The notes beneath the pieces are model-generated. The model was not told the DNA's origin, searched no databases, and saw only the letters and a program-made list of their open reading frames with translations. From positions 2,977-66,976 of the forward strand of contig JBBTSM010000010.1 in NCBI GenBank assembly GCA_038064675.1: a DNA stretch of 64,000 bases, given 5' to 3'. Numbering within the stretch: the first letter of the stretch is position 1; each line of letters opens with the position of its first letter. Positions 782 to 27,748 of this stretch are shown in pieces. The position numbers were made by a program, and so were the translations under genes. The stretch is from Patescibacteria group bacterium. GTDB taxonomy: Bacteria > Patescibacteriota > Patescibacteriia > UBA9934.

Positions 782-3718
782 CTAGGCTGGTCTTGCATAC
801 GGGCAGATGTCTTTAAAGTCGCAGTATTGGCAGTGTGGGCCTGGCGTTGCTTGGAATGTGCTTGTGCGAATCTTCTCCATGCTATCGCGAATCTGGAGCT
901 TGAGCTTTTCCTTGTCTTTATCCGTTGGCTCGAAGCTGACGGCGGTGTTCGATTCCAAGTAGTAGTACGTGAGCTTTTTGACGACGAGGGGTGGCACGAA
1001 GCTTTCTTCTGCGGCGATGGCGTACAGCACAAGCTGACGGCGGTCGTCCCAATCGAGCTTCGCCTTTGGCGTGCCGGTCTTGTAGTCGATGATTTCGATT
1101 CCGCCCTCTACATCGTCAATTCGGTCGATACGACCTTTCACCAGAATGCCGTCGATTTTAAGCGTGAATCCTTTTTCGATGAATTTTGGTGATGGCGGAT
1201 TCTCCGTAACGACGCGATAGTATTCCTTCATGATCTCTGTGCCACGAGCGTGGTATTCGTCGCGTGTGTTGTCGTCCGGATACCACTCGTCGATCCATGA
1301 TCGATCATACATGTCGAGCAGATCCTTTATCGTCGGCAACGCGATTGATTCGGTAGCGCCACCAAAAAGCGTTGCTTGATGCGCGGCTTTCGCAGCAATG
1401 ATGCGCTCCATGAACGCCTGGAGCGCATTGTGCATGGACTTTCCAAAGCTCATCTGGTGCTTGCCATACGACGGCACACCGATGATATGCGCGTACTTGT
1501 ACTGCAACGGACAGGTACTGAACGCCGCGATCTGCGAGAAGCTGATTTTGTCGGGAATGTGAATGTTCGCGTCACCGGTTGGCTTCTTTCCTACCTCGAG
1601 CGCCAAACTATCGGCAATGTTCTCCGGTCGAGCCACGCTGATCGCGTTCGTGAAGCCGAGCTCATCCAAGAATCGCGAGATTTTTCGCTTTCGCGATCCG
1701 CCGTAATCTTCCGCGCTCATCAAGTACAAGCCCTCCTTTGCACGAGTCATCGCCACATAAAACAGTCGACGCTCTTCTGCGACGTGATCGTTCCCCTCAA
1801 CTTCTTCCTTCATCAATCCCAGCGGGAAATCGATCGCCTGGGATCGGCCAACTGATGGAAATCGCTGTTCTACCAGGTTGATGACGAATACGTAGCGGAA
1901 CTCGAGGCCTTTCGATCCATGCACAGTCATCACTGAAACAACGTCCGGCCCTTCCTCAGGGTCCTGCGCCACAGCGCCGTCCTCCCCTGCCGCGCGTTCA
2001 GCATCGAACTCTTCGATGAATCGTGGGAGTGTTGCGTCGTCGTTCATCGCGACGAATCGCTTTAGTCGGTTAAAGAATCGCTCGAGGAATCGATAGAGCT
2101 CTTGCTGCTCCATTTCTGATGCGTGCTGACAATCGCCGAGTAATCCCGTCTCCTTCATCATCGTCACGAACAATTCAGTAATCGGTAATCGCTTTGCCTT
2201 ATTTCGGAGCTCGGCGATTTTCTGTTGGAGGTCGATAATGGTGTTTCGACCATGCATCGAAATTCGTGCAGCATCGGCGTACGTCAAAAGATCGAACAAC
2301 GACATTCCTTTTCTGCGAGCGTAGAACATGAGCGCGGTGAGATCCTCCTGCGATAGCCCCAGCCGAGGATGCGAAAGAATGCGGTACAACGATGGCGAGT
2401 CGTGCGGCGCGTTGATGACGCGAAGGTAACACAGCGCATCAAGAATAATCGGCATGGTGTACAGGCCAGACAACGCCATGAATCGATATGGAATACCGGC
2501 GCGCTCGAGAGCCTCGAGGAACGGATCAACGTGGTCGTTTCCGCGCGCAAGGATCGCAAAATCCTTCCAACTTGCGCCAGATTCGTCGTGCAACTTCGTG
2601 ATCGTTTCAACGACTGTGGCGACCTCGTCTTCAAGCGTTGCAGCGTGAATATGATGCACGTTTCCGGCGTGTTCGATATTCGAGATCAGTTGTTTCGATA
2701 ATCCTTCCGAAATTTCGAGCCGATGTGGATTGTTCTTGGTGATCGACGAATACGCAACGTCGAGAATCCCTCGGCCGCTCCGATAGTTGTGCACGAGAAC
2801 GATCTTTTTCGTATCAGGAAAATCCGATCGGAACGTAAGAATGTTCGCGAGTGCTGCACCGCGGAATTTATAAATCGCTTGATCGTCGTCTCCCACGATT
2901 GTGAGGTTATTCCTTGGAGCCGCAAGAAGTTTTACGAGCTCGTACTGCACGCTGTTTGTATCTTGGAACTCGTCGACCACAATATACGTGAATCGCTTCC
3001 GGTACTCCGCGAGAATGTTTGGACGAGTCTTGAACAGCTCGACGGTGTATGCGAGCAGATCACCGAAGTCGAGTGCGTCTTCTGCGATAAGGATGTCTTG
3101 ATACGTTTTGTATGCTCGAGCAACTTCGCGGTGCTTTTCCCATTCGAGTCGTTCTTCTTCTGGCAGCGAATCAAACGCCTCTTCCGATCCCGAAGTAATC
3201 GTTGAGATCTGGTTCTCAACATTCGCAATGTATTGGTCCGGCGTAATCCCCTCGTCTTTTGCTCGTGAGAAATGCGAGAGGAGGAGTTTGAAGAATTTGG
3301 TTGGAGTACCCCGAGGCTTGTAGTAATCGAGCTTGAAATCAGCGAGATGACGGCGCATGAACAGCCAACCATCAACCTCAGACGCAACCGTGAAATCTTG
3401 CGGAATTCCAATGTCTACCCCGTGTTCTCGAAGAACCTTTTCGCAGAATGCGTGAAACGTAGAGATCGATAAATCAACGTATCCCATTGGCAACAACACA
3501 TCCACACGCTCTTCCATTTCATTCGCGGCCTTATCGGTAAACGTCAGGGCCAAGATATTCTCCGGCATCGCTTTCCCCTGCTCAATGAGCCATGCAATAC
3601 GTTTTGTAATCACCGTGGTCTTCCCCGTTCCCGCGCCAGCAATAATCATGAGCGGTCCATCGCCGTGCATTACCGCTTGTTGCTGTTCGGCGTTGAGACC
3701 TTCGAAAAGATTAGACAT
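782..3718 (-). CDS. UvrD/PcrA-family SF1 DNA helicase fused to a C-terminal PD-(D/E)XK Cas4/AddB-like nuclease domain with a 4-Cys cluster
   Basis: 978 aa. Walker A AGAGTGKT, motif II VVDEFQDTN, motif III TIVGDDDQAIYKFRGA, NYRS, and motif VI VAMTRAKEGLYL. C-terminus has GRIDRID...EIIDYKTG...QLVLYA plus Cys in FSTCPLQY and CQYCDFKDIC, a RecB/Cas4-type nuclease with an Fe-S cysteine set. Confidence 0.9.
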   Translation of the reverse strand: MSNLFEGLNAEQQQAVMHGDGPLMIIAGAGTGKTTVITKRIAWLIEQGKAMPENILALTFTDKAANEMEERVDVLLPMGYVDLSISTFHAFCEKVLREHGVDIGIPQDFTVASEVDGWLFMRRHLADFKLDYYKPRGTPTKFFKLLLSHFSRAKDEGITPDQYIANVENQISTITSGSEEAFDSLPEEERLEWEKHREVARAYKTYQDILIAEDALDFGDLLAYTVELFKTRPNILAEYRKRFTYIVVDEFQDTNSVQYELVKLLAAPRNNLTIVGDDDQAIYKFRGAALANILTFRSDFPDTKKIVLVHNYRSGRGILDVAYSSITKNNPHRLEISEGLSKQLISNIEHAGNVHHIHAATLEDEVATVVETITKLHDESGASWKDFAILARGNDHVDPFLEALERAGIPYRFMALSGLYTMPIILDALCYLRVINAPHDSPSLYRILSHPRLGLSQEDLTALMFYARRKGMSLFDLLTYADAARISMHGRNTIIDLQQKIAELRNKAKRLPITELFVTMMKETGLLGDCQHASEMEQQELYRFLERFFNRLKRFVAMNDDATLPRFIEEFDAERAAGEDGAVAQDPEEGPDVVSVMTVHGSKGLEFRYVFVINLVEQRFPSVGRSQAIDFPLGLMKEEVEGNDHVAEERRLFYVAMTRAKEGLYLMSAEDYGGSRKRKISRFLDELGFTNAISVARPENIADSLALEVGKKPTGDANIHIPDKISFSQIAAFSTCPLQYKYAHIIGVPSYGKHQMSFGKSMHNALQAFMERIIAAKAAHQATLFGGATESIALPTIKDLLDMYDRSWIDEWYPDDNTRDEYHARGTEIMKEYYRVVTENPPSPKFIEKGFTLKIDGILVKGRIDRIDDVEGGIEIIDYKTGTPKAKLDWDDRRQLVLYAIAAEESFVPPLVVKKLTYYYLESNTAVSFEPTDKDKEKLKLQIRDSMEKIRTSTFQATPGPHCQYCDFKDICPYARPA

Positions 3719-3761
3719 AGAGATGAAAAGTTGCTAATCTTAGCCAGCACATGGGTGTATT

Positions 3762-4163
3762 ATGCGTTTTCGTGCGACGGCCGTTCGTGAACTTTCGGAG
3801 ATGTTTCGCTTCAATTCTCCCGCGTTTGGAAATCTGGGCCCGCAGGATCGGGTTCTGTTCATGGATCTTTACACTGAGGGATCCGATTTCGCTTGTGCAG
3901 GAATGGTTCTTTTTACGCGTGGAGATCGGCGCGGCGCACTTCTTCTGGCCGACCGCTGGAGCGATGGAAGGATCCTGATCACTACGTGGATCGATGCTTC
4001 GTTTTTTTACACACTTACCGATCCGCGAGTGCGTTCTCTCGGAGCTGACGCTGTTGCGCAATACTGCACCATCGTCAATCCGCACAAGCTCAACGCGGAA
4101 GAAATCTTCTCGCATGTCATGCGAACCATGCTCGAACGTCCTGCCAAGAACATGGGAAGTTGA
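3762..4163 (+). CDS. hypothetical protein (133 aa)
   Basis: ORF divergent from the helicase gene, followed by a GC hairpin terminator. No recognisable motif. Confidence 0.35.
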   Translation: MRFRATAVRELSEMFRFNSPAFGNLGPQDRVLFMDLYTEGSDFACAGMVLFTRGDRRGALLLADRWSDGRILITTWIDASFFYTLTDPRVRSLGADAVAQYCTIVNPHKLNAEEIFSHVMRTMLERPAKNMGS

Positions 4164-4225: not shown

Positions 4226-5441
4226 AAAGCGACGCGACGCTCTGCGCAACAGAAACAGCGAACTGAATTCCTGGTTGAGTGAGAAGGTATCCACCGACGC
4301 CGAACATGATGAGGACGTGAACGGCAAGGACGGCGGCAAAGATCTTTTGATGCTTTGACATCGGGCCCGTCGCTTCTTCTGCGTGGTCTTGTGCGGTAAG
4401 TGTTATCACTGCACGAACGTAATATGCGCTCAGAATTGCGAGAATCGCAAAGACGCACAGTGCGAGAACGAGATAGGCTTGCAACGCGTAGCCAACGCCG
4501 ATCAGTTCGCTGACGAAGAGCATCGAGAATGGTGCGCCGAGGAGAGAGGCAAAGAGCGCGCCGCAGAGATATTTGATTACTGGTCGGGTGCGAACAGATG
4601 CAGAATCTTGTGCCGCATACCACAGTCCCGAATGCGCTACTGCCTGACCACCAAGGTGAATGAGCGCTGGGATTGTTCCTGCTGGACCTGCGCCAACCAT
4701 GAAGGCAACTAGTCCAATGTGTTCGATACTTGAAATGGAAAGGAGCTGACGGTTCTTTTTAAACACGAGTTTAATGACGGAGATAAGCAAGAGGAGAACG
4801 CCAAAGCCAAGGAAGATGTTGTCTGTCCATGTGCCGCCGTCTGCCATCGCAACGTCTGCAATCTGTTTTAAGCGAAGAAGCGCAATGAAAAATACTACTG
4901 GCGCCGCTGTGCCAACAAAGCTGGTAAATCGCGTCTTCATGAAGAACAACCCGAACGCGCCAAGAATACCCACGGCAACCGCGGCGAATGCAAACTGAAC
5001 CAGCTGAGCATTGAGTGTGCTGGTTGCAAGAGTTTCAGCAACGCCACCAAAGGAAAGCGCGCTCCATGAGGACACACCAGCGTCCATCTGCGCCTTGAGG
5101 AACAGCGCCGCTCCCACAACGAAAAGCCCAACGGAACCGATACACAGCGCGAGAATGGTCTTTCGTGCTTTTTCGTTTGCTGCACGTTCCGCATGAAGCG
5201 CAAGACACGTCGCACAGATGACGGCTAATGCAAATGCGAGTGCAAGCACGGCGAGATTGTCGGTGAATAGTGTGGCGATGACGGCGATGAATCCTGCAAT
5301 AGTCACTGAGAGTTCGGATCGATGTGCTCGTGTTCCTCCGATGGTGAGAATGAATGTGCCAACTCCGAGTACTCCTACCAACACCAATTGGCACCACACA
5401 AGAAGATCTACGTGCCAAAGAGAAAGAAAGGCATTCAACAT
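4224..5441 (-). CDS. proton-conducting antiporter-like membrane subunit (NuoN/MrpD/HyfF-like, Proton_antipo_M family)
   Basis: 405 aa polytopic membrane protein. SIEHIGLVAFMVGAG and ALIHLGGQAVAHSGLWYAA resemble the conserved core of complex I/Mrp antiporter subunits. Confidence 0.55.
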   Translation of the reverse strand: MLNAFLSLWHVDLLVWCQLVLVGVLGVGTFILTIGGTRAHRSELSVTIAGFIAVIATLFTDNLAVLALAFALAVICATCLALHAERAANEKARKTILALCIGSVGLFVVGAALFLKAQMDAGVSSWSALSFGGVAETLATSTLNAQLVQFAFAAVAVGILGAFGLFFMKTRFTSFVGTAAPVVFFIALLRLKQIADVAMADGGTWTDNIFLGFGVLLLLISVIKLVFKKNRQLLSISSIEHIGLVAFMVGAGPAGTIPALIHLGGQAVAHSGLWYAAQDSASVRTRPVIKYLCGALFASLLGAPFSMLFVSELIGVGYALQAYLVLALCVFAILAILSAYYVRAVITLTAQDHAEEATGPMSKHQKIFAAVLAVHVLIMFGVGGYLLTQPGIQFAVSVAQSVASL

Positions 5442-19892: not shown

Positions 19893-20105
19893 TTTCGACT
19901 CACGTCATCAAAAATTTCCTCAATGTACCATGAAGTACACCTCGGAAATTTTTTCGACGTTCATCGAAACTGGTCTAAAATGAGAAAGTCCTCATAGGCA
20001 GAAGTGTAGCGGATAACCAGTTGATTGTAAAAGATATTCACGGTATCTTTGAGTCTGATCAGGCCACGAAATGTAAAAAAATTTATCTTCAAGTGTCGTA
20101 AAACT

Positions 20106-20630
20106 ATGATCGCTATTAACAAGCCAGCACCAAGCTTTGAAAACATTACGTCGTACACCGAGGGAGAGTTCACCAAAACCAGTTTGAGCACCTACAAAGG
20201 TGGTTGGGTGGTGCTGTTCTTCTACCCTCGCGACTTCACGTTCATCTGCCCTACTGAAATTAAAGGTTTCCAAAAGCACGAAGCAGACTTTGCTGCACTC
20301 AACGCAAAAGTCGTCGGCGCATCCACCGACAGTGAATGGAGTCACAAAGCATGGTTTGAACGCGATCTTCCAGAAGTGGCCTACCCTATTCTTGCGGACA
20401 CCACGCAAAAAGTTTCCCGCGACTACGGCGTATTAAATGAAGACGACGGCAGCAGCGATCGCGGACTCTTCATCATCGACCCAGAAGGCGTGGTGAAATT
20501 CGCACTTGTCTCCGCAGGATCGGTCGGCCGATCGGTAAAGGAAGTAATTCGTGTACTGACAGCTCTGCAGTCTGGCGAGCTTTGTCCGGTGGAATGGGAA
20601 CCTGGCGAGAAGACATTAGGAAAGGCGTAA
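20106..20630 (+). CDS. peroxiredoxin (AhpC/TSA family, typical 2-Cys)
   Basis: FFYPRDFTFICPTEI holds the peroxidatic Cys; resolving Cys in GELCPVEW near the C-terminus. Confidence 0.92.
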   Translation: MIAINKPAPSFENITSYTEGEFTKTSLSTYKGGWVVLFFYPRDFTFICPTEIKGFQKHEADFAALNAKVVGASTDSEWSHKAWFERDLPEVAYPILADTTQKVSRDYGVLNEDDGSSDRGLFIIDPEGVVKFALVSAGSVGRSVKEVIRVLTALQSGELCPVEWEPGEKTLGKA

Positions 20631-20647
20631 ATTCTTCATCAAAAACA

Positions 20648-20683
20648 GTAGGTCAGAGCCGCGTGGCTCTGACCTACTTTTGA
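20648..20683 (+). terminator. hairpin gtaggtcagagccgcgtggctctgacctac plus tttt, terminator of the prx gene
   Basis: Perfect inverted repeat followed by a T-run. Confidence 0.7.
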
Positions 20684-21852
20684 ATACAAATCTGTCGTGA
20701 GTCTCGATTGTCCGAAAACGTCAGTCGCCAGTACGTATCGTCTTCCTGAACGCGCAGTTCCATTCCAATCTCCTTACAGATTCTGGAGAAGACTTCTCGA
20801 CAAAGCAGAAATCGACTTTCCAACGTATTTGTTAATGGAGTTGGCGGTGTAACCGTGAGCTTTTGTAAATAAAATTCAAACTCCTCTGCCGCACGTTTTG
20901 TGATGCTCGGCGCAACTCCCGTCTGTACAGCATTCCGAATGGATTTCAGGATCTCCTCTTCACTTTTATTTCGAATATCTGCGGTAAAAAAATCACTATA
21001 TGCTTGCACCGCACGAATGTTTTTAAGAAAACCATGTGCGATTCTTCGGCAGGAAGTAGTAATATACGGATGCGTTCGCAAAAAACTTTGCATTCCAAAC
21101 TTTCTTACAAAGAAATACGTAAGTACAAGCTCCTCTCCAACCCACGCCGAGGGATCGAATCCTCCGATGCGAACATATGAAGCAGCACTCAAAACAGTGT
21201 TCCCGCACCATGCGCTAACAAAAGCATCCTCCGGAGCGTCAGGACCGTATGCACTTTCCAAATTCTCTACCAATCTTACTAAATCACCAAAATACGGAAT
21301 TTCATATGCGGCGTCAATATAATGCTGCGACTGCGTACTCAACAGCGCCTTTCCACGGTGAAGAGCAACAAGACTCTCAAGATACTCTGGATCGATCTTC
21401 AGTGCATCGGCGTCATTATTCACGAGCAAGGTCTCCAAACCAGATCCACGCAAAAGCGCAAGGTCATTCAGAATCTTCCGAAGAAGTCCAATTGGCGCCT
21501 TCTGTGAAAATGTCCATTCAAAAAAACACACTCGAACCGTGTGTGATTTTTGAAATTCACGAACCTGATTTTTCAACCTATTCACTGATGAATCTTCTTC
21601 CCTCCGGTTCAGGAACAGAAGAACCTCGTAACGTTGTTTTTTAATTGTCTGTTTCTCGTACAGCGTCAAAAGCCGTTCGATATTCTGTTCGGATGAATGT
21701 ACGGGGATTAAAACAAAAATGGACGTCCCTGGCACAGCCGGTGGCAGCTGTGCCAGAACATCAGCGAGCGTCTGAACGTATTCAGGATGGTTCTTCTGCT
21801 CGTTCGCAAGATACTCTTGAATCTCATCGACCATACTCAGCTCCATTGCCAT
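20674..21852 (-). CDS. GT-A-like (DXD motif) glycosyltransferase-family-2-like protein; stand-alone paralog of the C-terminal domain of the giant protein at 22829..27748
   Basis: SIFVLIPVHSSEQNIERLL (GT2-like first strand), LLVNNDADALKIDPEYLESLV, SAASYVRIGGFD. These align with giant-protein segments FEILLYVNWPK, LVIANDADTVYGSPEYLVDVL, RGSSYAAIGGN. Confidence 0.55.
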   Translation of the reverse strand: MAMELSMVDEIQEYLANEQKNHPEYVQTLADVLAQLPPAVPGTSIFVLIPVHSSEQNIERLLTLYEKQTIKKQRYEVLLFLNRREEDSSVNRLKNQVREFQKSHTVRVCFFEWTFSQKAPIGLLRKILNDLALLRGSGLETLLVNNDADALKIDPEYLESLVALHRGKALLSTQSQHYIDAAYEIPYFGDLVRLVENLESAYGPDAPEDAFVSAWCGNTVLSAASYVRIGGFDPSAWVGEELVLTYFFVRKFGMQSFLRTHPYITTSCRRIAHGFLKNIRAVQAYSDFFTADIRNKSEEEILKSIRNAVQTGVAPSITKRAAEEFEFYLQKLTVTPPTPLTNTLESRFLLCREVFSRICKEIGMELRVQEDDTYWRLTFSDNRDSRQICIQK

Positions 21853-21855
21853 TTC

Positions 21856-22251
21856 TTATTCTTGCGACTCACCTTTCGTCGCTTTGTCCAAGGCAGAGTG
21901 ATATACGGTTAATGCATCCAAACGCGCCCGTTGCTCATCCAAGCCTTCCGTGCCCGCAAGAGGAGACCGCGCCTCTGCAGAACCCTCACGACTCATCCTA
22001 TTTGCCAAGGCTGCGTAATACGCGTCCCAATCCACTACTGATTGTGGCCCCGCTTGACGAAGTGCTTCTGCCTTAGCCATAGCCTCTTCCTTTGTCCCTG
22101 GATAAACAGCAACAGTGGCAGCATGTTCATGTGCTGCAAGTAACGTATCGAATGCCTTCTTCTGACCCGGCGTATACAAAATTTGGTCTGGTTCGTGAGT
22201 CCTATCCCCTTCCGGCACACGCTCAATAAACGGATCTTTTGGTTCTGGCAT
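21856..22251 (-). CDS. hypothetical protein (131 aa), co-transcribed upstream of the GT-A-like gene
   Basis: 4-bp gap to the downstream gene. No motif. Confidence 0.4.
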   Translation of the reverse strand: MPEPKDPFIERVPEGDRTHEPDQILYTPGQKKAFDTLLAAHEHAATVAVYPGTKEEAMAKAEALRQAGPQSVVDWDAYYAALANRMSREGSAEARSPLAGTEGLDEQRARLDALTVYHSALDKATKGESQE

Positions 22252-22316
22252 ACGATGGTATTAAGAATCTAAAGCAATTCTAACAGATACAGGAAATATT
22301 CTCTGTTGTTATTCAC

Positions 22317-22412
22317 AGAAAGAGGTGATCCGCGCTCTGACGGCATTACAATCTGGCGAGCTGTGTCCGGTGGAATGGGAACCGGGTGAGAAGACCTTAG
22401 GGAAGGTGTAGA
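22317..22412 (+). pseudogene. Remnant 3' fragment (last ~31 codons plus stop) of a second, diverged peroxiredoxin gene
   Basis: Encodes S-KEVIRALTALQSGELCPVEWEPGEKTLGKV*. The prx gene ends SVKEVIRVLTALQSGELCPVEWEPGEKTLGKA*. About 80% nucleotide identity, differences mostly synonymous. No upstream ORF. Confidence 0.7.
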
Positions 22413-22443
22413 ATAACGGTGAGGCAATTAATGCTGCATCAAT

Positions 22444-22785
22444 ATGAGCAATGAGCTCCCATCACAAAGAGAGGTTGTCGAGGCAGAAATTCAAAGAGTA
22501 ATCGCCGACTACCGCGAACAAGAAAAACTTGCAGCGAGCCCAGATTACAATATTCGATACGGACCAAAGTATTTTATTGGACTAAACAAAGGACGATTTG
22601 CTTTTGCGGCACTAGGCGTTCCGCAAACGCGCGATGGTGGCGCACCATTCTATCCAAACTGGACTGTTGAAGATTTTCGACATGTCTGCCGAGAACTCGG
22701 GATCGACTACGAAGCAGCAGATACATTTGCGAACCAAGAGGTTGCCCAAAGAACACAGCGAGGTGCAGGAAAAGAGAATAATTAG
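22444..22785 (+). CDS. hypothetical protein (113 aa)
   Basis: ORF followed by the hairpin terminator at 22797. No motif. Confidence 0.4.
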   Translation: MSNELPSQREVVEAEIQRVIADYREQEKLAASPDYNIRYGPKYFIGLNKGRFAFAALGVPQTRDGGAPFYPNWTVEDFRHVCRELGIDYEAADTFANQEVAQRTQRGAGKENN

Positions 22786-22796
22786 CGGGTACAAAA

Positions 22797-22822
22797 AATC
22801 AGAGCCGTGCGGCTCTGATTTG
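22797..22822. terminator. hairpin aaatcagagccgtgcggctctgattt, between convergent genes
   Basis: Core tcagagccgYgYggctctga nearly identical to the hairpin at 20655. Confidence 0.6.
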
Positions 22823-22828
22823 TTATTG

Positions 22829-25800
22829 CTAGAACACCGGAGGAACAAATGGCCCCAATGGGTTATTTTTTAACTTCGCACCCTTTCTGTTGCTTTCTCG
22901 ATACTCAAGAAGTCTCCTGCGGAGAACCGATGTATCAGTTGGGATTACCGTAATCCACTCAGGATGAGGTGAGATATCGGCCTTTATGCCAAGGAAATCC
23001 AATGTCTGCCTCAAATACTCTTCACCTTCAAGACCGATTTGTCCGCTTCCGTGATAGTAGAAGGTTTTTTGTGCAATATGCATGAACGCTTCAATTTCAT
23101 CACGGATTCTGGCATTGAATTGTTGAACAATTTCATCGCTCTCCGAAGCCTCGGCGAGCTTTCGGACATCGAGATTTTCAGGTTGCGCGTGTTCCGCCAT
23201 TCCACCTCCTCGAACATTTTTTCTGTCGTTAAAATCAGACCACGTGTACGCAACAAGCTCTCCACTTTTGAACTTATCGATTTCACGACGTGGGTCGACC
23301 ATGACCCAATCCTTGTTCGAATATCCAACCGTTCTCTTTCCACCACGAGCGACTGAGAAGAGACGACCGAATTCGATATCTGCCCAGAAATCCTTGGTAC
23401 GATTTCCACCGATTGCGGCATAACTTGATCCGCGCAAAATCGTATTTCGTCCCTGAGTCATAATGTTCCCAGTCTTTGAGCGTGAAATTGCTTCGATAAA
23501 CTGCGCAAACCTCATCGCAACATGGAAGGTTGGATTCTTTTCGTAAACCTCCGGATCGAGATCCTGCCTACCGACAAGAGCGTCCAAATCCGGTCTCTTC
23601 TTCATGTCATCAAGGACATCGACAAGATACTCTGGAGATCCATAGACTGTATCTGCATCGTTGGCGATGACGAGAATTTCCCGGTCTCCTGATCGTCGAA
23701 GGTTTCGTCGCAACGCGAGATCGAATACTTTTCTTTTAATCCAACCGACTTCAGGTTTTCCGACCTTAATTTCCTCAGAGTATACCTTCAGTGCAACTTT
23801 AGGGTGATCTTTTCTGAAACGCTCGATCTCCGAGAATGTTTTGTTTGCATCTGCGCCTTTTGGCCAGTTGACGTAAAGAAGTATCTCAAACTTCGCGGTT
23901 TTTCCGGCCCAAACTGAAGCACCTTTCCGGTCGCGGTTCACCGCATACGTCTCCAGAGTTCTGTAAATATTTGCATGCTCACCGGCACCAGCAGCCGCCA
24001 ACGCAACACAAGCTTCTACGCTATCACCCATCTTGTCTTTGTTTTGAGCGTCAAGCGTATCGAGTTCCTTTTTGTAGCCAGGATAGCGCCTTTCCATGTC
24101 TTCGAAATACCATTCCATCTCCTTTCGCGGATTGAGAGGCGCATTTGGATCCTCTTTCAATCGAGGAGACATATCTGCACGAAGTGCCTGTTCGCTCCCC
24201 TCGGTTGCATTTGGGTAATACGGATACAGCGCAATAGCAGAATCTCCACCTTCTAATTCTGGCGTCTGATTCCCCGCTTCTGGCCCTGCAAATTCACCGG
24301 GCGGCAAAGGTGGTGGTGCAACTGGAGGCATAAACGGACCCGCCTCACCTCGAGGCCCCTTCTTCATCGGCTCCATCGGTTGACGACCGCGAATTGGGAC
24401 GAACCAAGGGACGATGACTGGCGGAACTTCGTGGCCTGGGAGATCGATGTTCGTGACGTGGCGAGCGACGGATTCAGCGGTGTCGGTGGAGGTAATTCCG
24501 GAATGGACTCCAGCGCCCTGCGCTGTTGCAAGAATACTGAAGTGGTTCACGCCAGCGGCATCGAAGCCTTTAGAAACTCCAACCTCGGCAGTGTGATACA
24601 GCGGAATAACCTTTCCGTGATCAATGCGGAAGAACGTCTTGCCGATGTCCGATGTCGGATCGATATGAATCTGCCCGTGTTGATCCGGTAATACTTCAAT
24701 AACACTATTCTGCGCGTGATCGTTCATCGTGAGCAACACACGAATTTTGCCCTCAACAAGTTCTGCCGGAGCATTATCTGTTAATCCGCTATGGAATGAA
24801 CCGTCCTTCGCCATGTGACCCATGGTCATGACGATCTGGCCATCTGAATCCAAACCCATTGGGTGCACGCCATCGCCGGTCACTCCGCCCCATTCAAGTT
24901 TCAATTCGTTGTGATCTGCGCCAAGCCAACGCTTAAGCTCCTCTGAAAAATGCATCGGCGTGTCGTTGTCCATCCAGTGATCGCGATGGATTTTCTGCAT
25001 TGCATGATGACGCAACCATTCCCATGTGCTTTCTTTGGTACTGGTGGTGGCGCCTGAATTGATCCACTGATCTTTCTCCACAATATTCGCGCCTGCACCT
25101 CGCAACGTAGCCTCCGACGCAGCATCAAGATGACCCGATGCATCGATGTGCAGGCCAGATGCAATTGCATGATGATCCGCGGCAGACTCAAGAACAAAGC
25201 TTCCATCCGCCTGCGGCACAAGATCGGTTCCCGGAGGAGTCGTGAACGATCCCCCGCCAATCATTTCCATATTCGGTGAACCGACGGCAGCAAGCGGGGC
25301 ATGATTAAAGTACGCCATGAGCGCATGCCACGCACTGCCGATGGTGGTGTCTCCACCCGTACCAAGCGCCCACAGGTCGTGAGCGACGGTACCAACAACG
25401 GCACCGATCGCCATCGTAGAAAGTCCGCGCTTCAATGCGACACGGTTCGACCACTCTGCGAACTTCTTCTGCTGCACGCGCGCTTTGCTGGTCTCCTTGC
25501 CATATAAGGAAACTTCACTCAGCTTATAGATATAGTCAAAGTACTCCTGAAATCCGGCGACGGTCTTATTCTTTACTTTCTCTCCGTATGCATCTTCGTG
25601 TGCTTTCCGAAGGGCGGCTTTCAAACTTGCACGCGCAACATCGAGATTCAACCGTTCAACTTCAGCCTCCGCAACGCCTGTATATTTCAGCAAGTCGATC
25701 TTCTCGCGATCACTGATACGAATACGCGCCTCTATATTCGCAAGGACTTCAGTAGCATTTTCGATCGTGACATCACCACGCAACTCTTTGCTATCCGCAC

Positions 25801-27748
25801 TCAAGAATCCGCGAACACTTTCCGCGAGCCCCTTTGCACTTTCACGAGCAAGCGCAAACTTCTCCATCTCTGCGCGACGAGGCTGAACCTCGCGACCACT
25901 CCGCAGCGCTTGGATTTCCTTTTCTAACGAATACCGCTCCATCGGCTGCCACCATCCAAGCTTTCCCTGTCTCGCTAATAATTCTGCCTCAACCTTATTC
26001 GAATCGTCATTCTTCGTCTCCCCACCAAGCGCCATCTGGCGTTCGTGAAGAGCGCGCTCGCTGTTCAATCGGCCCTTTTCTTTCCATGCGCTGTACGCTC
26101 CAGTGACAACTGCGGAACCTCCAAACGTAAGTGCCTTTGCCGCCGTGTTTTTGAGACCGGCCATAATTCCAATTCCCCACATGGACGCTGCCGCGCCAAG
26201 CGCGATACCGATTTCGTTTCGAAACGCTATGGCAATGGCGCCTCCAGCCACAGGGTGACGACTACTCCATTGATCAAGCTTTTCAAGTGTTTTATCAATA
26301 AAATTCTTTTCTCGTTCCGTCCGAGCGCCAAGCTTCATTCGACCAACGACAATTTCAAGATCAATATCCAGATTCTCCATCCCATTCACTGCCGCGGCAG
26401 CCTGACGAACCTGTTCCGCAAGCTTGTCCAAGTTATCCGCATACAACATGCCACGCCCTTTTGCTTCTCCGCCCAATGCATTCGCACTCGCGAAAATTTT
26501 ATCCCGACGTAATTGCAATTCCTCCTTGCTCATTTCAACGTTCGAGGCATATTCCTTCACCAACTCCAACAGATCAACACGAACCGCCTCTTCTTCTGGC
26601 GAATACTTCGTGACGCCTTCTGCATCTTTCTTTCCAAACTCCGTTCTTCGTTCTCCGTGCGCACCTTCGTTGTGCAAAAATTCATCACTTCGTTGCACCA
26701 AGCGTTCAAGCATCGCGCCAGTTGCCTTTTCGTGGTCTGCACGACTCAGCCCCTTACCAACGAAAACGTTGCGCGTAGACAGCACCTGGTTGCGTAATTT
26801 TCCAATCCCACGCTGTCGATATTCCTCGTGCGCAAGATTATGCTTGAAAATCTTATCCCACGTTCCCGCATCTCGCTTTTCTGCGTGCAATGATTCATCT
26901 ACGTCGTCACTGATAATATCCTCGGCCGTATCAGAGATATCGCCTGCGCCGTACCGCAAATGCAAAGGAACGCCCTTTTTCGCGACGGGCTTTTCGCTTT
27001 CGTCATCCTCAAGCTCAACCATCACTGGCGTTGCTGGGGGTTTTGCACCCGTCTCAACAACTTTGCGCTCCATAGAATCCGCGGTCAATTTCTCGAGATT
27101 CACAGAAACTCCACTCCCGTCTACATCAGCTGGGAGTGCTTTGACGCCCTCAGACATCGCTACAACCTTAGCAACAGGTATCGCAAGAATTTCACCTTTC
27201 GGTCCTTTTAACAGCACCGGGCTACCATCATCTCCAGACACAACACCAAGAATTCTCCATCGCTCCACTGCGGCCCCGCGCAACAAAAAAACATCTTCAC
27301 CGGCACGCCGTGCATACGCAGCCTGAGCGCGGCGAGCCTCATCTTCTGTCCATGATTCTGCCGACCAACGATGTCGTGGGCGCCTGTACGTTTCACCACG
27401 AGATACAGCATTATCGTATCCGCTCCGCATTTCGTCATCAGACAAAATTCCGTACGCATCGGCGGCCTCCTTAAATCTCCGGCTCGCCTCAGCTCGAACA
27501 GCGGCCGATTCCTTGTCGTGTCTATCAGGATGAAATTTCATCGCAAGCTTAAGGAAAGCAGCCTTAATTTCATCTTTACTCGCATTAGCGCGAACGCCCA
27601 AAGCATCGTACAGGGTCTTCGGCGCAGATTCACTACTTGATTCCGCGGTATCCGTCGCCTCGTGCGAACCGCTGTTTTTTTTATAGCCCCCGGCAACTCC
27701 CAGTCCGAAGAACGTATCTTTTCCTAACGGCATTTTATACATCAACAT
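22829..27748 (-). CDS. giant multidomain protein (1639 aa): N-terminal DnaJ J-domain, coiled-coil region, Gly/Ala-rich TM segments, proline-rich linker, C-terminal GT-A-like (DXD) domain
   Basis: J-domain TLYDALGVRANASKDEIKAAFLKLAMKFHPDRH...YGILSDDEMRSGYD with HPD. Hydrophobic AGGAIAIAFRNEIGIALGAAASMWGIGIMAG and GLSTMAIGAVVGTVAHDLWALG. PFMPPVAPPPLPPGEF linker. C-terminal LVIANDADTVYGSPEYL. Confidence 0.8.
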   Translation of the reverse strand: MLMYKMPLGKDTFFGLGVAGGYKKNSGSHEATDTAESSSESAPKTLYDALGVRANASKDEIKAAFLKLAMKFHPDRHDKESAAVRAEASRRFKEAADAYGILSDDEMRSGYDNAVSRGETYRRPRHRWSAESWTEDEARRAQAAYARRAGEDVFLLRGAAVERWRILGVVSGDDGSPVLLKGPKGEILAIPVAKVVAMSEGVKALPADVDGSGVSVNLEKLTADSMERKVVETGAKPPATPVMVELEDDESEKPVAKKGVPLHLRYGAGDISDTAEDIISDDVDESLHAEKRDAGTWDKIFKHNLAHEEYRQRGIGKLRNQVLSTRNVFVGKGLSRADHEKATGAMLERLVQRSDEFLHNEGAHGERRTEFGKKDAEGVTKYSPEEEAVRVDLLELVKEYASNVEMSKEELQLRRDKIFASANALGGEAKGRGMLYADNLDKLAEQVRQAAAAVNGMENLDIDLEIVVGRMKLGARTEREKNFIDKTLEKLDQWSSRHPVAGGAIAIAFRNEIGIALGAAASMWGIGIMAGLKNTAAKALTFGGSAVVTGAYSAWKEKGRLNSERALHERQMALGGETKNDDSNKVEAELLARQGKLGWWQPMERYSLEKEIQALRSGREVQPRRAEMEKFALARESAKGLAESVRGFLSADSKELRGDVTIENATEVLANIEARIRISDREKIDLLKYTGVAEAEVERLNLDVARASLKAALRKAHEDAYGEKVKNKTVAGFQEYFDYIYKLSEVSLYGKETSKARVQQKKFAEWSNRVALKRGLSTMAIGAVVGTVAHDLWALGTGGDTTIGSAWHALMAYFNHAPLAAVGSPNMEMIGGGSFTTPPGTDLVPQADGSFVLESAADHHAIASGLHIDASGHLDAASEATLRGAGANIVEKDQWINSGATTSTKESTWEWLRHHAMQKIHRDHWMDNDTPMHFSEELKRWLGADHNELKLEWGGVTGDGVHPMGLDSDGQIVMTMGHMAKDGSFHSGLTDNAPAELVEGKIRVLLTMNDHAQNSVIEVLPDQHGQIHIDPTSDIGKTFFRIDHGKVIPLYHTAEVGVSKGFDAAGVNHFSILATAQGAGVHSGITSTDTAESVARHVTNIDLPGHEVPPVIVPWFVPIRGRQPMEPMKKGPRGEAGPFMPPVAPPPLPPGEFAGPEAGNQTPELEGGDSAIALYPYYPNATEGSEQALRADMSPRLKEDPNAPLNPRKEMEWYFEDMERRYPGYKKELDTLDAQNKDKMGDSVEACVALAAAGAGEHANIYRTLETYAVNRDRKGASVWAGKTAKFEILLYVNWPKGADANKTFSEIERFRKDHPKVALKVYSEEIKVGKPEVGWIKRKVFDLALRRNLRRSGDREILVIANDADTVYGSPEYLVDVLDDMKKRPDLDALVGRQDLDPEVYEKNPTFHVAMRFAQFIEAISRSKTGNIMTQGRNTILRGSSYAAIGGNRTKDFWADIEFGRLFSVARGGKRTVGYSNKDWVMVDPRREIDKFKSGELVAYTWSDFNDRKNVRGGGMAEHAQPENLDVRKLAEASESDEIVQQFNARIRDEIEAFMHIAQKTFYYHGSGQIGLEGEEYLRQTLDFLGIKADISPHPEWITVIPTDTSVLRRRLLEYRESNRKGAKLKNNPLGPFVPPVF

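Follow-up and report, generated by a model that had tools for sequence, protein, structure and literature searches.

An orphan peroxiredoxin gene end as a recombination scar in a hypervariable interval of Candidatus Uhrbacteria

In an uncultured groundwater bacterium of the Candidatus Uhrbacteria (Patescibacteria), an orphan copy of the 3' end of a peroxiredoxin gene (prx), located downstream of the intact gene, is a genuine recombination scar. The explanation that we favour, and to which we would accord an even chance, is that this orphan tail derives from the end of the prx orthologue of another Uhrbacteria lineage and entered the locus joined to a small gene, p113. Judged from its colinearity with related genomes, the orphan tail belongs with p113, the gene that follows it, and not with the glycosyltransferase (GT)-like cassette that lies between it and the intact prx. 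Across Ca. Uhrbacteria, the interval from prx to a giant J-domain gene is a cassette-exchange zone.

Results

The window (the whole stretch of 64 kb of DNA that was analysed) contains prx as the last gene of a conserved block, MetRS-RsmI-DUF3179-prx, the synteny of which is held across Ca. Uhrbacteria (Table 1; related loci and genomes are designated by L numbers). A repeat search recovered a two-copy direct repeat (20538-20629 and 22319-22410) of 92 nt with 80% identity and a spacing of 1781 nt, and alignment of the intact prx end with the orphan tail by their stop codons gave 74 of 93 identical nucleotides and 28 of 30 identical residues. A first-pass annotation of the same DNA had reported a diverged duplicate of the prx 3' end at 22317..22412; the duplicate was confirmed and its exact span corrected to 22319..22411. 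The orphan tail, whose translation is KEVIRALTALQSGELCPVEWEPGEKTLGKV*, as the annotation had given it, with the TAG stop at 22409-22411, possesses neither a start codon nor prx sequence upstream: homology to prx breaks off sharply 5' of codon 145, the in-frame codons further upstream are unrelated and a TAA stop is encountered at 22262. Alignment of both copies revealed no similarity 3' of their stop codons.

Table 1. Features of the prx-to-giant interval (window coordinates)
Feature	Position	Strand	Description
Intact prx	20106..20630	+	174 aa, AhpC/TSA; Pfam AhpC-TSA, E 4e-37
Repeat copy 1	20538..20630	+	Codons 145-174 and stop of intact prx
Hairpin A	20644..20681 (core 20653-20672)		Bidirectional terminator between convergent prx and GT392
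GT392	20674..21852	-	Glycosyltransferase-like; Pfam CHGN, E 0.0024 (weak, under family cut-off)
p131	21856..22251	-	Small ORF upstream of GT392, same transcriptional direction; no Pfam match
Upstream (promoter-side) spacer of p131	22252..22318		Conserved; stops exactly at the orphan-tail junction
Repeat copy 2 (orphan prx tail)	22319..22411	+	30 codons and TAG
Promoter-like site (GTGAGA, 17 nt, TAGAAT)	22386..22414	+	Consensus scan; inside the end of the orphan tail, 30 nt before the p113 start
p113	22444..22785	+	Small lineage-restricted gene
Hairpin B	22793..22824 (core 22799-22818)		Bidirectional terminator between p113 and the giant gene
Giant gene	22829..27748	-	1639 aa; N-terminal J domain (Pfam DnaJ, E 7.5e-18) and GT392-like C-terminal domain

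GT392 is paralogous to the C-terminal domain of the giant protein, with 25-28% identity to residues 1210-1448 of the latter; its homologues are 46-65% identical, and those that were looked up (L087-L089), as well as that of L016/L090, hold the same position. The protein p131 is 33% identical to p93 of L087, which is encoded at the same position, where small ORFs are also found in L088, L089 and L090, and the p131 upstream spacer aligns with the small-ORF upstream regions of L087, L088 and L089 up to the motif TATTCACAG. In a word-indexed protein search p113 matched nothing but itself, as was likewise the case for p319 of L016; exhaustive HMMER searching retrieved one homologue of 113 aa (61% identical) and one of 98 aa (44% identity over the matched stretch; 36% by tblastn), and a protein-level scan of JGI metagenomes recovered no p113 relatives. 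The giant gene delimits the variable interval on the right and shares no more than 35-57% identity with its homologues in relatives.

Sixteen of the 18 coding differences between the two prx tails are synonymous, in keeping with their first-pass description as mostly synonymous. Nei-Gojobori analysis gave 16 synonymous differences (Sd) over 22.2 synonymous sites and two non-synonymous differences (Nd) over 67.8 non-synonymous sites, and a binomial test argued against neutral decay of the copy (p = 1.7e-8); the tails therefore diverged under purifying selection, while both belonged to working genes. Third-position identity between the orphan and intact tails is 0.48, the same as between species (0.35-0.55), and the prx tail is conserved in all relatives.

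Independent assemblies from separate data sets (L001, L002 and L004) span the orphan tail with an identical structure at 99.99-100% identity, thereby excluding an assembly artefact and establishing that the truncation is genuine in this lineage, while L003 matches the window up to the end of its own contig, which falls within GT392. The first-pass annotation had envisaged that the fragment might prove to be the genuine end of an intact gene in relatives, implying a sequence or assembly error; relatives do carry an intact prx at this place, but the agreement of L001, L002 and L004 disposes of the assembly error. It is true that related Uhrbacteria co-occur in the same samples, the window type (L003) and the L016 type (L092) both having been recovered from ERZ1292624, a situation that would suit an assembly chimera of two such strains. 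This reading, along with that of the genome's own prx tail having been duplicated internally and then diverged, is nevertheless barely credible given the concordant assemblies and given that a non-coding copy would decay with dN approximating dS, contrary to the counts above.

Almost every related genome has its own set of genes between prx and the giant gene, and L009 carries a second, independent prx-tail fragment; both findings bear out the earlier view of the region 3' of prx as a recombination hotspot. The interval comprises a GT-like gene and a small ORF in L087, L088 and L089, a p113-family gene after prx in L093 and L095, both cassettes in the other order in L090, and neither in L007; that of the window holds both alternative cassettes, with the prx tail at their border. 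No prx fragment accompanies the GT392-type gene and small upstream ORF that L087, L088, L089 and L090/L016 carry in the prx-to-giant interval. Since GT392 and p131 occupy the same place in L087-L090, the GT-like cassette is not the insert, and the first-pass proposal that its insertion truncated a prx copy is not supported. In L093, L095 and L090, a p113-family gene is located directly 3' of the intact prx, facing the giant J-domain gene. Positions 22319-22719 of the window were aligned by blastn with positions 312-704 of L093, the alignment starting exactly at the first base of the orphan tail, and the window and L093 are colinear from the orphan tail, which corresponds to the end of the intact prx of L093, through the spacer to p113, the L093 homologue of which is the 61% identical one; the same order of prx tail followed by p113 is observed in L095 and L090.

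A former prx tandem, in which insertion of the GT cassette, or a deletion, cut short a full-length paralogue, had been put forward to account for the orphan tail. The low dN in the presence of saturated dS does place the tail in a working prx until recently and, taken alone, fits a long-maintained paralogue, but a copy as old as this dS implies should be visible in related lineages. Comparison of 83 independent Ca. Uhrbacteria loci revealed no second close prx copy in tandem (0/83) and no head or middle fragment of prx, and the second AhpC/TSA matches seen in distant relatives are paralogues of 24-32% identity that lie upstream of prx. With GT392 and p131 in their usual place in relatives, and with relatives showing a single intact prx exactly at the position that the orphan tail holds relative to p113, we regard a tandem origin as highly improbable. 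All prx fragments found, those of this lineage and of L009, are tails that lie 3' of prx and share its orientation. A common origin of the L009 fragment and the orphan tail of the window was considered and rejected, as their 70 of 93 identical positions reflect no special relatedness.

The closest genome is L088 (MetRS 96% at the amino acid level; ~14% nucleotide divergence across the MetRS region). Compared to L088, the intact prx has diverged evenly, its body at 55 of 432 positions (12.7%) and its tail at 14 of 93 (15%), and the orphan tail has diverged at 22 of 93 (23.7%). The orphan tail contains 11 states that are absent from five close relatives, and the nine of these that are synonymous would have been acquired in a working gene of another lineage. 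Lineage-unique states are also in threefold excess in the intact tail (7/93 versus 11/432 in the prx body, p = 0.026), which could itself be an imported piece on account of this mild surplus. At sites where L007 and L088 differ, the orphan tail sides with L007 (7 to 2) and the intact tail with L088 (7 to 3), a pattern that both directions of transfer predict and that does not separate them. The gene prx is moreover a mosaic that resembles L007 over its 5' 135 nt and L088 over the remainder (p = 0.007), and GT392 shares more identity with its homologue in L087 (65%) than with that in L088 (47%), although L088 is the closest genome, so that 'native' is hard to define in this interval. The intact tail displays 14-23 mismatches and the orphan tail 17-26 to every sampled tail, with synonymous sites near saturation, such that no donor or recipient lineage can be named. 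A degenerate, fragment-specific DNA pattern had no match in the metagenome contigs; neither this search nor the JGI and word-indexed searches with p113 recovered a donor with a near-identical tail followed by p113, and the direction of transfer consequently rests on the divergence statistics of only 93 bases.

Removal of positions 22319-22785 leaves a spacer that aligns over its full length with that of L088 (120 versus 121 nt), but those of L087 and L089 lose similarity immediately past the same motif, so that this precise-excision alignment supports a pure insertion only weakly. The junctions, CACAG/AAAGAG and ATTAG/CGGG, share at most 'AG' (~2 nt of microhomology, as read from the window sequence). 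The insert adjoins a candidate anchor for the crossover, consisting of hairpin B and the adjacent giant-gene 3' end, which have homologous counterparts in L007, L088, L089 and L093.

The cores of hairpin A (TCAGAGCCGCGTGGCTCTGA) and hairpin B (TCAGAGCCGTGCGGCTCTGA) are identical at 18 of 20 positions, and both hairpins score as terminator-like, with folding energies of -29.3 kcal/mol (z -7.7) and -19.4 kcal/mol (z -4.3), respectively. The similar palindromic hairpins which the first-pass annotation had seen as bounding the region are thus real, their cores being located as listed in Table 1 and not at 20655 and 22798. When CAGAGCCNNNNGGCTCTG was searched with up to two mismatches, hairpins A and B were the sole matches in the 64 kb window (0.15 expected); a genome-wide repeat family was rejected on the basis of these two copies in 64 kb, the likeness reflecting homologous terminator units. 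GAGCC...GGCTC hairpins homologous to hairpin A follow prx in L007, L087, L009 and L012, while hairpin B, which shares 19 of 20 positions with the one hairpin of L007, has homologous counterparts in the giant-gene terminators of L088 and L089. The orphan tail may also act as the promoter region of p113, a possibility suggested by the promoter-like site within its end, which stems from a consensus scan whose number of sites is not above shuffle expectation.

Discussion

Under the explanation favoured here, the ancestral locus would have consisted of prx, a hairpin, GT392, p131, the spacer, a hairpin and the giant gene, and the donor would have been a p113-type relative with the order prx, p113, hairpin and giant gene. 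Following uptake by transformation, the right side of the donor DNA could have found pairing partners in the homologous terminator hairpin and in the giant-gene 3' end, while its left end would have extended only ~93 bp into the donor prx. As ~93 bp at ~80% identity would be too short for a homologous crossover, this left end would have become attached illegitimately to the spacer immediately preceding the hairpin, the outcome being an additive insertion of ~467 bp (22319..22785) with no swap of cassettes and with the foreign prx tail marking the illegitimate joint. Patescibacteria have been reported to carry competence and recombination genes (PMC12455944). The presence of recombination machinery in this organism is indicated by an AddA-like helicase-nuclease encoded in the window at 782-3718.

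Integration that relies on homology at one side and on an illegitimate joint at the other is well established (PMC3240628; PMC5361080), and homology-facilitated illegitimate recombination (HFIR) has been described in natural transformation or conjugation of Acinetobacter, Streptococcus pneumoniae, Pseudomonas stutzeri and E. coli (PMC3240628; references in PMC5361080). As in HFIR, foreign DNA would have been added beside a putative homologous anchor with a non-homologous second joint, no recombinase gene is present, the event would be an insertion and not a replacement, and the insert would include the terminal stretch of the donor DNA, in this case 93 bp of donor prx; the insert had furthermore diverged from its resident homologue while functional (Sd 16, Nd 2; 22/93 versus 14/93). 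In contrast to HFIR experiments, the present case is deduced from a natural genome, including its anchor and direction, the microhomology at the junctions does not exceed ~2 nt and the recipient has apparently lost no sequence.

The transfer may also have proceeded in the opposite direction, by displacement of a 3' end, which we deem possible but rather unlikely. In this scenario, an ancestor of the L093/L095 type (prx, p113, hairpin, giant gene) would have received DNA of the L087/L088 type (prx, hairpin, GT392, p131, spacer) through a homologous crossover in the prx body; illegitimate joining of the far end to the resident prx at codon 145 would have pushed the tail and p113 of the recipient downstream, and the intact prx would end in donor sequence. 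The recipient architecture that is needed exists in L093 and L095, the intact tail exhibits the aforementioned excess of lineage-unique states over the body, and the nearest homologue of GT392 resides in L087 and not in the closest genome. In addition, the orphan tail, hairpin B and giant gene lean to L007/L009 and the intact tail and GT392 to L087/L088, the mosaic boundary in prx could be the left crossover, and at Rhs, CDI and T6SS loci old 3' ends are documented to be displaced along with the gene that follows them (PMC5361080). However, a native fragment predicts the opposite of the divergence from L088 that was found, in which it is the orphan tail that stands out against the intact tail and the body, and the synonymous nature of most of its unique states (9/11) is not that of decay after truncation. 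Displacement would also require the donor DNA to end exactly where the conserved block upstream of p131 ends, so as to leave a clean canonical architecture, and the illegitimate joint would fall in a stretch that is itself able to pair with the donor tail.

C-terminal displacement with arrays of orphan 3' ends has been described in Rhs, CDI and T6SS effector-immunity loci (Kirchberger et al. 2017, PMC5361080). These share with the present locus an orphan 3' end downstream of an intact gene and in the same orientation, a hypervariable interval beside a conserved gene, and an orphan end that still precedes its cognate downstream gene, here p113, as the colinearity with L093 illustrates. They differ in that functionally different toxic tips are swapped and immunity genes kept, whereas the two tails described here encode nearly identical residues; prx specifies a housekeeping antioxidant enzyme, and the divergence favours an orphan tail that was incoming and not displaced.

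Integrative elements that insert into the 3' ends of genes restore the gene and duplicate the att site, and the att repeats share an exact core of element origin. The window resembles such a case in that a direct repeat of a gene 3' end brackets extra DNA (~1.7 kb) and the target gene is intact, and both prx tails contain an identical run of 20 nt, TGTCCGGTGGAATGGGAACC, an identical run in the L009 pair measuring 35 nt. A circular element with a prx-tail att site might accordingly have integrated in Campbell fashion through a crossover in TGTCCGGTGGAATGGGAACC, the tails representing attL and attR. We consider this very unlikely, as Pfam identified no integrase or recombinase in GT392, p131 or p113, nor in the giant protein, and as the bracketed genes are resident in relatives devoid of the repeat (L087-L090), whereas the DNA of such an element would be absent from relatives with an uninterrupted site. 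Moreover, the repeats are 20% diverged at synonymous sites, 11 of the 20 identical bases (GAATGGGAACC) represent nearly invariant codons in all relatives, and p113 had no match in phage or plasmid collections.

The phenomenon is a familiar type of recombination scar, an ordinary footprint that involves no new principle. Its value lies in offering a dated, base-resolved example of between-species gene gain in Candidatus Uhrbacteria, which are not growable and whose gene-exchange mechanisms are therefore known only indirectly, and in the identification of the prx-to-giant interval as a hypervariable locus. It is tempting to speculate, though we would sooner doubt it than not, that this interval serves as a dedicated exchange locus of Uhrbacteria, where the p113 family, GT-like genes with their small ORFs and toxin-antitoxin pairs are shuffled between co-occurring species by transformation, with the conserved prx and the shared terminator hairpin as recombination arms. 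On this view, the scars of the present lineage and of L009 would document natural one-sided (HFIR-type) integration events in an ultra-small bacterium that has not been cultivated, and the tail may have been kept for the sake of the p113 promoter. For these epibionts, the giant J-domain/GT-like protein, the stand-alone GT and the small orphan genes could be relevant to cell-surface or host-interaction biology.

A repeated peroxiredoxin 3' end

The intact peroxiredoxin gene prx ends in a stretch of 30 codons plus stop (20538..20630) that is repeated as an orphan fragment further downstream (see Table). A repeat search returned the pair as a direct repeat of 92 nt at 80% identity, and alignment by the stop codon gave 74 identical bases of 93 and 28 identical residues of 30, confirming the duplicate that the first-pass annotation had recognised, whose translation had been read correctly and whose coordinates were one to two bases off. 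The likeness breaks off sharply on the 5' side of codon 145, and the codons that precede the fragment in frame are unrelated as far as a TAA at 22262; sequence comparison revealed no likeness between the two copies beyond their stop codons. The same structure is present at 99.99–100% identity in independent assemblies of this lineage that span the fragment (L001, L002 and L004), and a further assembly, L003, is concordant over its reach, its contig ending inside the glycosyltransferase-like gene GT392, which rules out an assembly chimera.

The differences between the tails are mostly synonymous, as had been annotated, with 16 synonymous differences over 22.2 sites and 2 non-synonymous differences over 67.8 sites by the Nei-Gojobori method (p = 1.7e-8 against neutral decay). 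Third-position identity of the fragment to the intact tail is 0.48, compared to 0.35–0.55 between species. Synonymous divergence at the between-species level together with an almost unchanged peptide argues that the two tails diverged in working genes of separate lineages and would have been united recently by gene transfer.

Table. Features from prx to the giant gene, with window positions
Feature	Position	Strand	Length	Remark
Intact prx	20106..20630		174 aa	Pfam AhpC-TSA, E 4e-37
Hairpin A	20653..20672		20 nt	after prx
GT392	20674..21852	-		glycosyltransferase signal weak, sub-threshold only
p131	21856..22251	-		without Pfam family
prx-tail fragment	22319..22411	+		
p113	22444..22785	+		without Pfam family
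Hairpin B	22799..22818	.	20 nt	between p113 and giant gene
Giant gene	22829..27748	-	1639 aa	convergent

The interval between prx and the giant gene

The giant protein carries a J domain at its N-terminus (Pfam), and its C-terminal domain and GT392 are distant paralogues (25–28% identity). The similar hairpins previously reported to bound the region are both present as 20-nt palindromes, 18/20 identical, each with a stable fold and a terminator-like score, and the motif has no further matches in the 64 kb window.

An exact-protein look-up and a scan with a single genome for each species assigned the window to Candidatus Uhrbacteria (Patescibacteria) from groundwater, and 80 species-level loci formed the comparative frame. 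The MetRS-RsmI-DUF3179-prx block is kept in many of these loci and the sequence after prx is not conserved. In the closest genome found, L088, amino-acid identity reaches 96% for MetRS, 94% for RsmI and 98% for prx, but only 47–48% for the GT homologue and the giant, both of which are fast-evolving. The related locus L007 runs from prx through one hairpin to the giant with nothing between, and in L008 the giant gene is missing, as is anything else between prx and the sequence corresponding to window 27923 and beyond (L008:10523-11225). As the content after prx is variable, its genes patchily common to lineages and its flanks conserved, the prx-to-giant interval is a hypervariable mosaic zone between conserved borders.

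The single hairpin of L007 (L007:2112-2170) is flanked on the left by sequence like that beside the window's hairpin A and on the right by sequence like that beside its hairpin B, which looks like a deletion, or the ancestral state, between two hairpins. In L088 the GT gene lies between two small ORFs that are paralogues of each other, p80 and p111 (3543-3785 and 5042-5377; 54% identical over 61 residues). Assemblies L003 and L092 both derive from ERZ1292624, so that one groundwater sample contains the window's organism together with the L016/L090 lineage, whose prx is 87% identical and has a p113-like gene immediately 3' of it; lineages that could act as donor and recipient thus live in a common habitat.

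Origin of the fragment

It had been proposed that a former prx tandem was disrupted, its second copy being truncated through insertion of the GT cassette or by deletion. Had there been a tandem, relatives would be expected to show it intact or to retain various pieces of prx, yet 83 independent loci contained no second close prx and no prx head or middle fragment, the one further piece being a tail fragment in L009; weak second matches in distant relatives are AhpC/TSA paralogues, 24–32% identical, upstream of prx. The tandem, and with it a paralogue remnant, was consequently rejected. Nor is the GT cassette the truncating insert, as it is not lineage-specific: GT392 homologues (46–65% identical), with a small ORF before each of them, occupy the same place in L087, L088, L089 and L090/L016, and the prx fragment is absent from all of these loci. 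Upstream of p131, the spacer (22252..22318) can be aligned with its counterparts in L087, L088 and L089 as far as the junction itself, and hairpin B has homologues in the giant-gene terminators of L088 and L089 and in the one hairpin present in L007. An integrative element was likewise discarded, since Pfam revealed no recombinase in the interval and the bracketed GT genes are resident in relatives. What stands of the original proposal is a recombination footprint at a hotspot.

The small gene p113 was apparently an orphan in a word-indexed protein search; exhaustive HMMER searching recovered homologues of 113 aa at 61% identity and of 98 aa at 44% across the aligned part (36% in tblastn), and a search of phage and plasmid collections returned no phage or plasmid relatives. 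In L093, prx is 92% identical and intact apart from its truncation by the contig end; 24 nt after it comes a p113 orthologue, followed by a GAGCC-type hairpin and a convergent giant-gene 3' end 75% identical to that of L088. L095 has the order DUF3179, prx, p113-family gene, giant, DUF5663, and L090 encodes a longer protein with a p113-like N-terminus directly 3' of prx. Using blastn, window 22319-22719 was found to align to L093 312-704 (prx tail, spacer and p113), starting at the exact first base of the fragment. These contexts and this colinearity argue that p113 formerly had a prx in front of it, of which the fragment is the remainder. Both alternative fillings of the interval lie next to each other in the window, namely the L087 and L088 type (GT with a small ORF) and the L093 and L095 type (p113), with the prx tail at their border.

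A candidate promoter (GTGAGA, 17 nt, TAGAAT; 22386-22414) overlaps the fragment's stop codon 30 nt upstream of the p113 start, a consensus match that might be the reason why the prx tail travels with p113.

Mechanism and direction of transfer

The architecture fits one homologous crossover and one illegitimate joint, for which homology-facilitated illegitimate recombination (HFIR) is a documented route (PMC3240628; PMC5361080). A resident locus consisting of prx, hairpin A, GT392, p131, spacer, hairpin B and giant may have received a donor piece of prx tail, p113, hairpin and giant, which would have paired on the right, its short left end being joined illegitimately beside hairpin B. An incoming donor prx tail and p113 is the favoured direction, to which we give about an even chance, because the intact gene is evenly diverged from L088 (prx body 12.7%, tail 15%, MetRS about 14%) and the fragment more so (23.7%), and because 9 of the 11 fragment states absent from five close relatives are synonymous. 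Such states point not to decay but to acquisition while the sequence belonged to a functional prx in a more distantly related lineage.

The converse, that the native tail was displaced by incoming GT-type DNA, is rather unlikely; here the resident would have been prx, p113, hairpin B and giant, and the donor (prx, hairpin A, GT392, p131 and spacer) would have paired in the prx body with an illegitimate joint at codon 145. It would accommodate a threefold excess of lineage-unique states in the intact tail (7/93 against 11/432 in the body, p = 0.026), the greater proximity of GT392 to L087 than to L088, and the internally mosaic prx, whose first ~135 nt match L007 11 to 2 at sites where L007 and L088 differ and whose remainder leans to L088 18 to 11 (switch near nt 140, Fisher p = 0.007), but it is at odds with the higher divergence of the fragment from L088. 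The preference for an incoming prx tail and p113 is a judgement, as the informative bases number only 93 and a metagenome scan with the p113 protein and a fragment-specific DNA pattern revealed no donor among sampled sequences.

The fragment is a new example of an already known kind of footprint. It behaves like an HFIR product, and its layout recalls that of Rhs, CDI and T6SS loci with their orphaned 3' ends (PMC5361080), but it falls outside this polymorphic-toxin class since essentially one and the same peptide is encoded by both tails. It is of value because it preserves, in a natural genome, a record of gene gain between species within an uncultivated Patescibacteria lineage, and because it draws attention to the prx-to-giant locus as hypervariable.

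A second scar at the prx border

In L009 (10526-11252), an intact prx is followed by a hairpin, a RelE-superfamily toxin (86 aa, with sub-threshold matches to HigB, ParE, YafQ and YoeB), an ORF of 73 aa upstream of the toxin gene and, last, a prx tail of 46 codons. This tail is decaying, with an in-frame W to stop change and several replacements, and within it a 35-nt run, with diverged sequence on either side, is identical to the intact tail of L009, a pattern suggestive of gene conversion or of a crossover core. Both scars are tails lying downstream of prx in the same orientation, and from the independent L009 case it follows that the prx border has undergone additive integration more than once.

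Recombination end-processing machinery is encoded nearby, as shown by an AddA/RecB-like protein of 978 aa (window 782-3718; UvrD helicase and PD-(D/E)XK nuclease). The divergent DUF3179-prx intergenic region contains an imperfect palindrome with 19-nt arms (AAAAATTTCCTCAATGTAC / GTACACCTCGGAAATTTTT; 19910-19953), a stretch which yielded no blastn alignment to L088 or L007 and which may constitute an operator or terminator.
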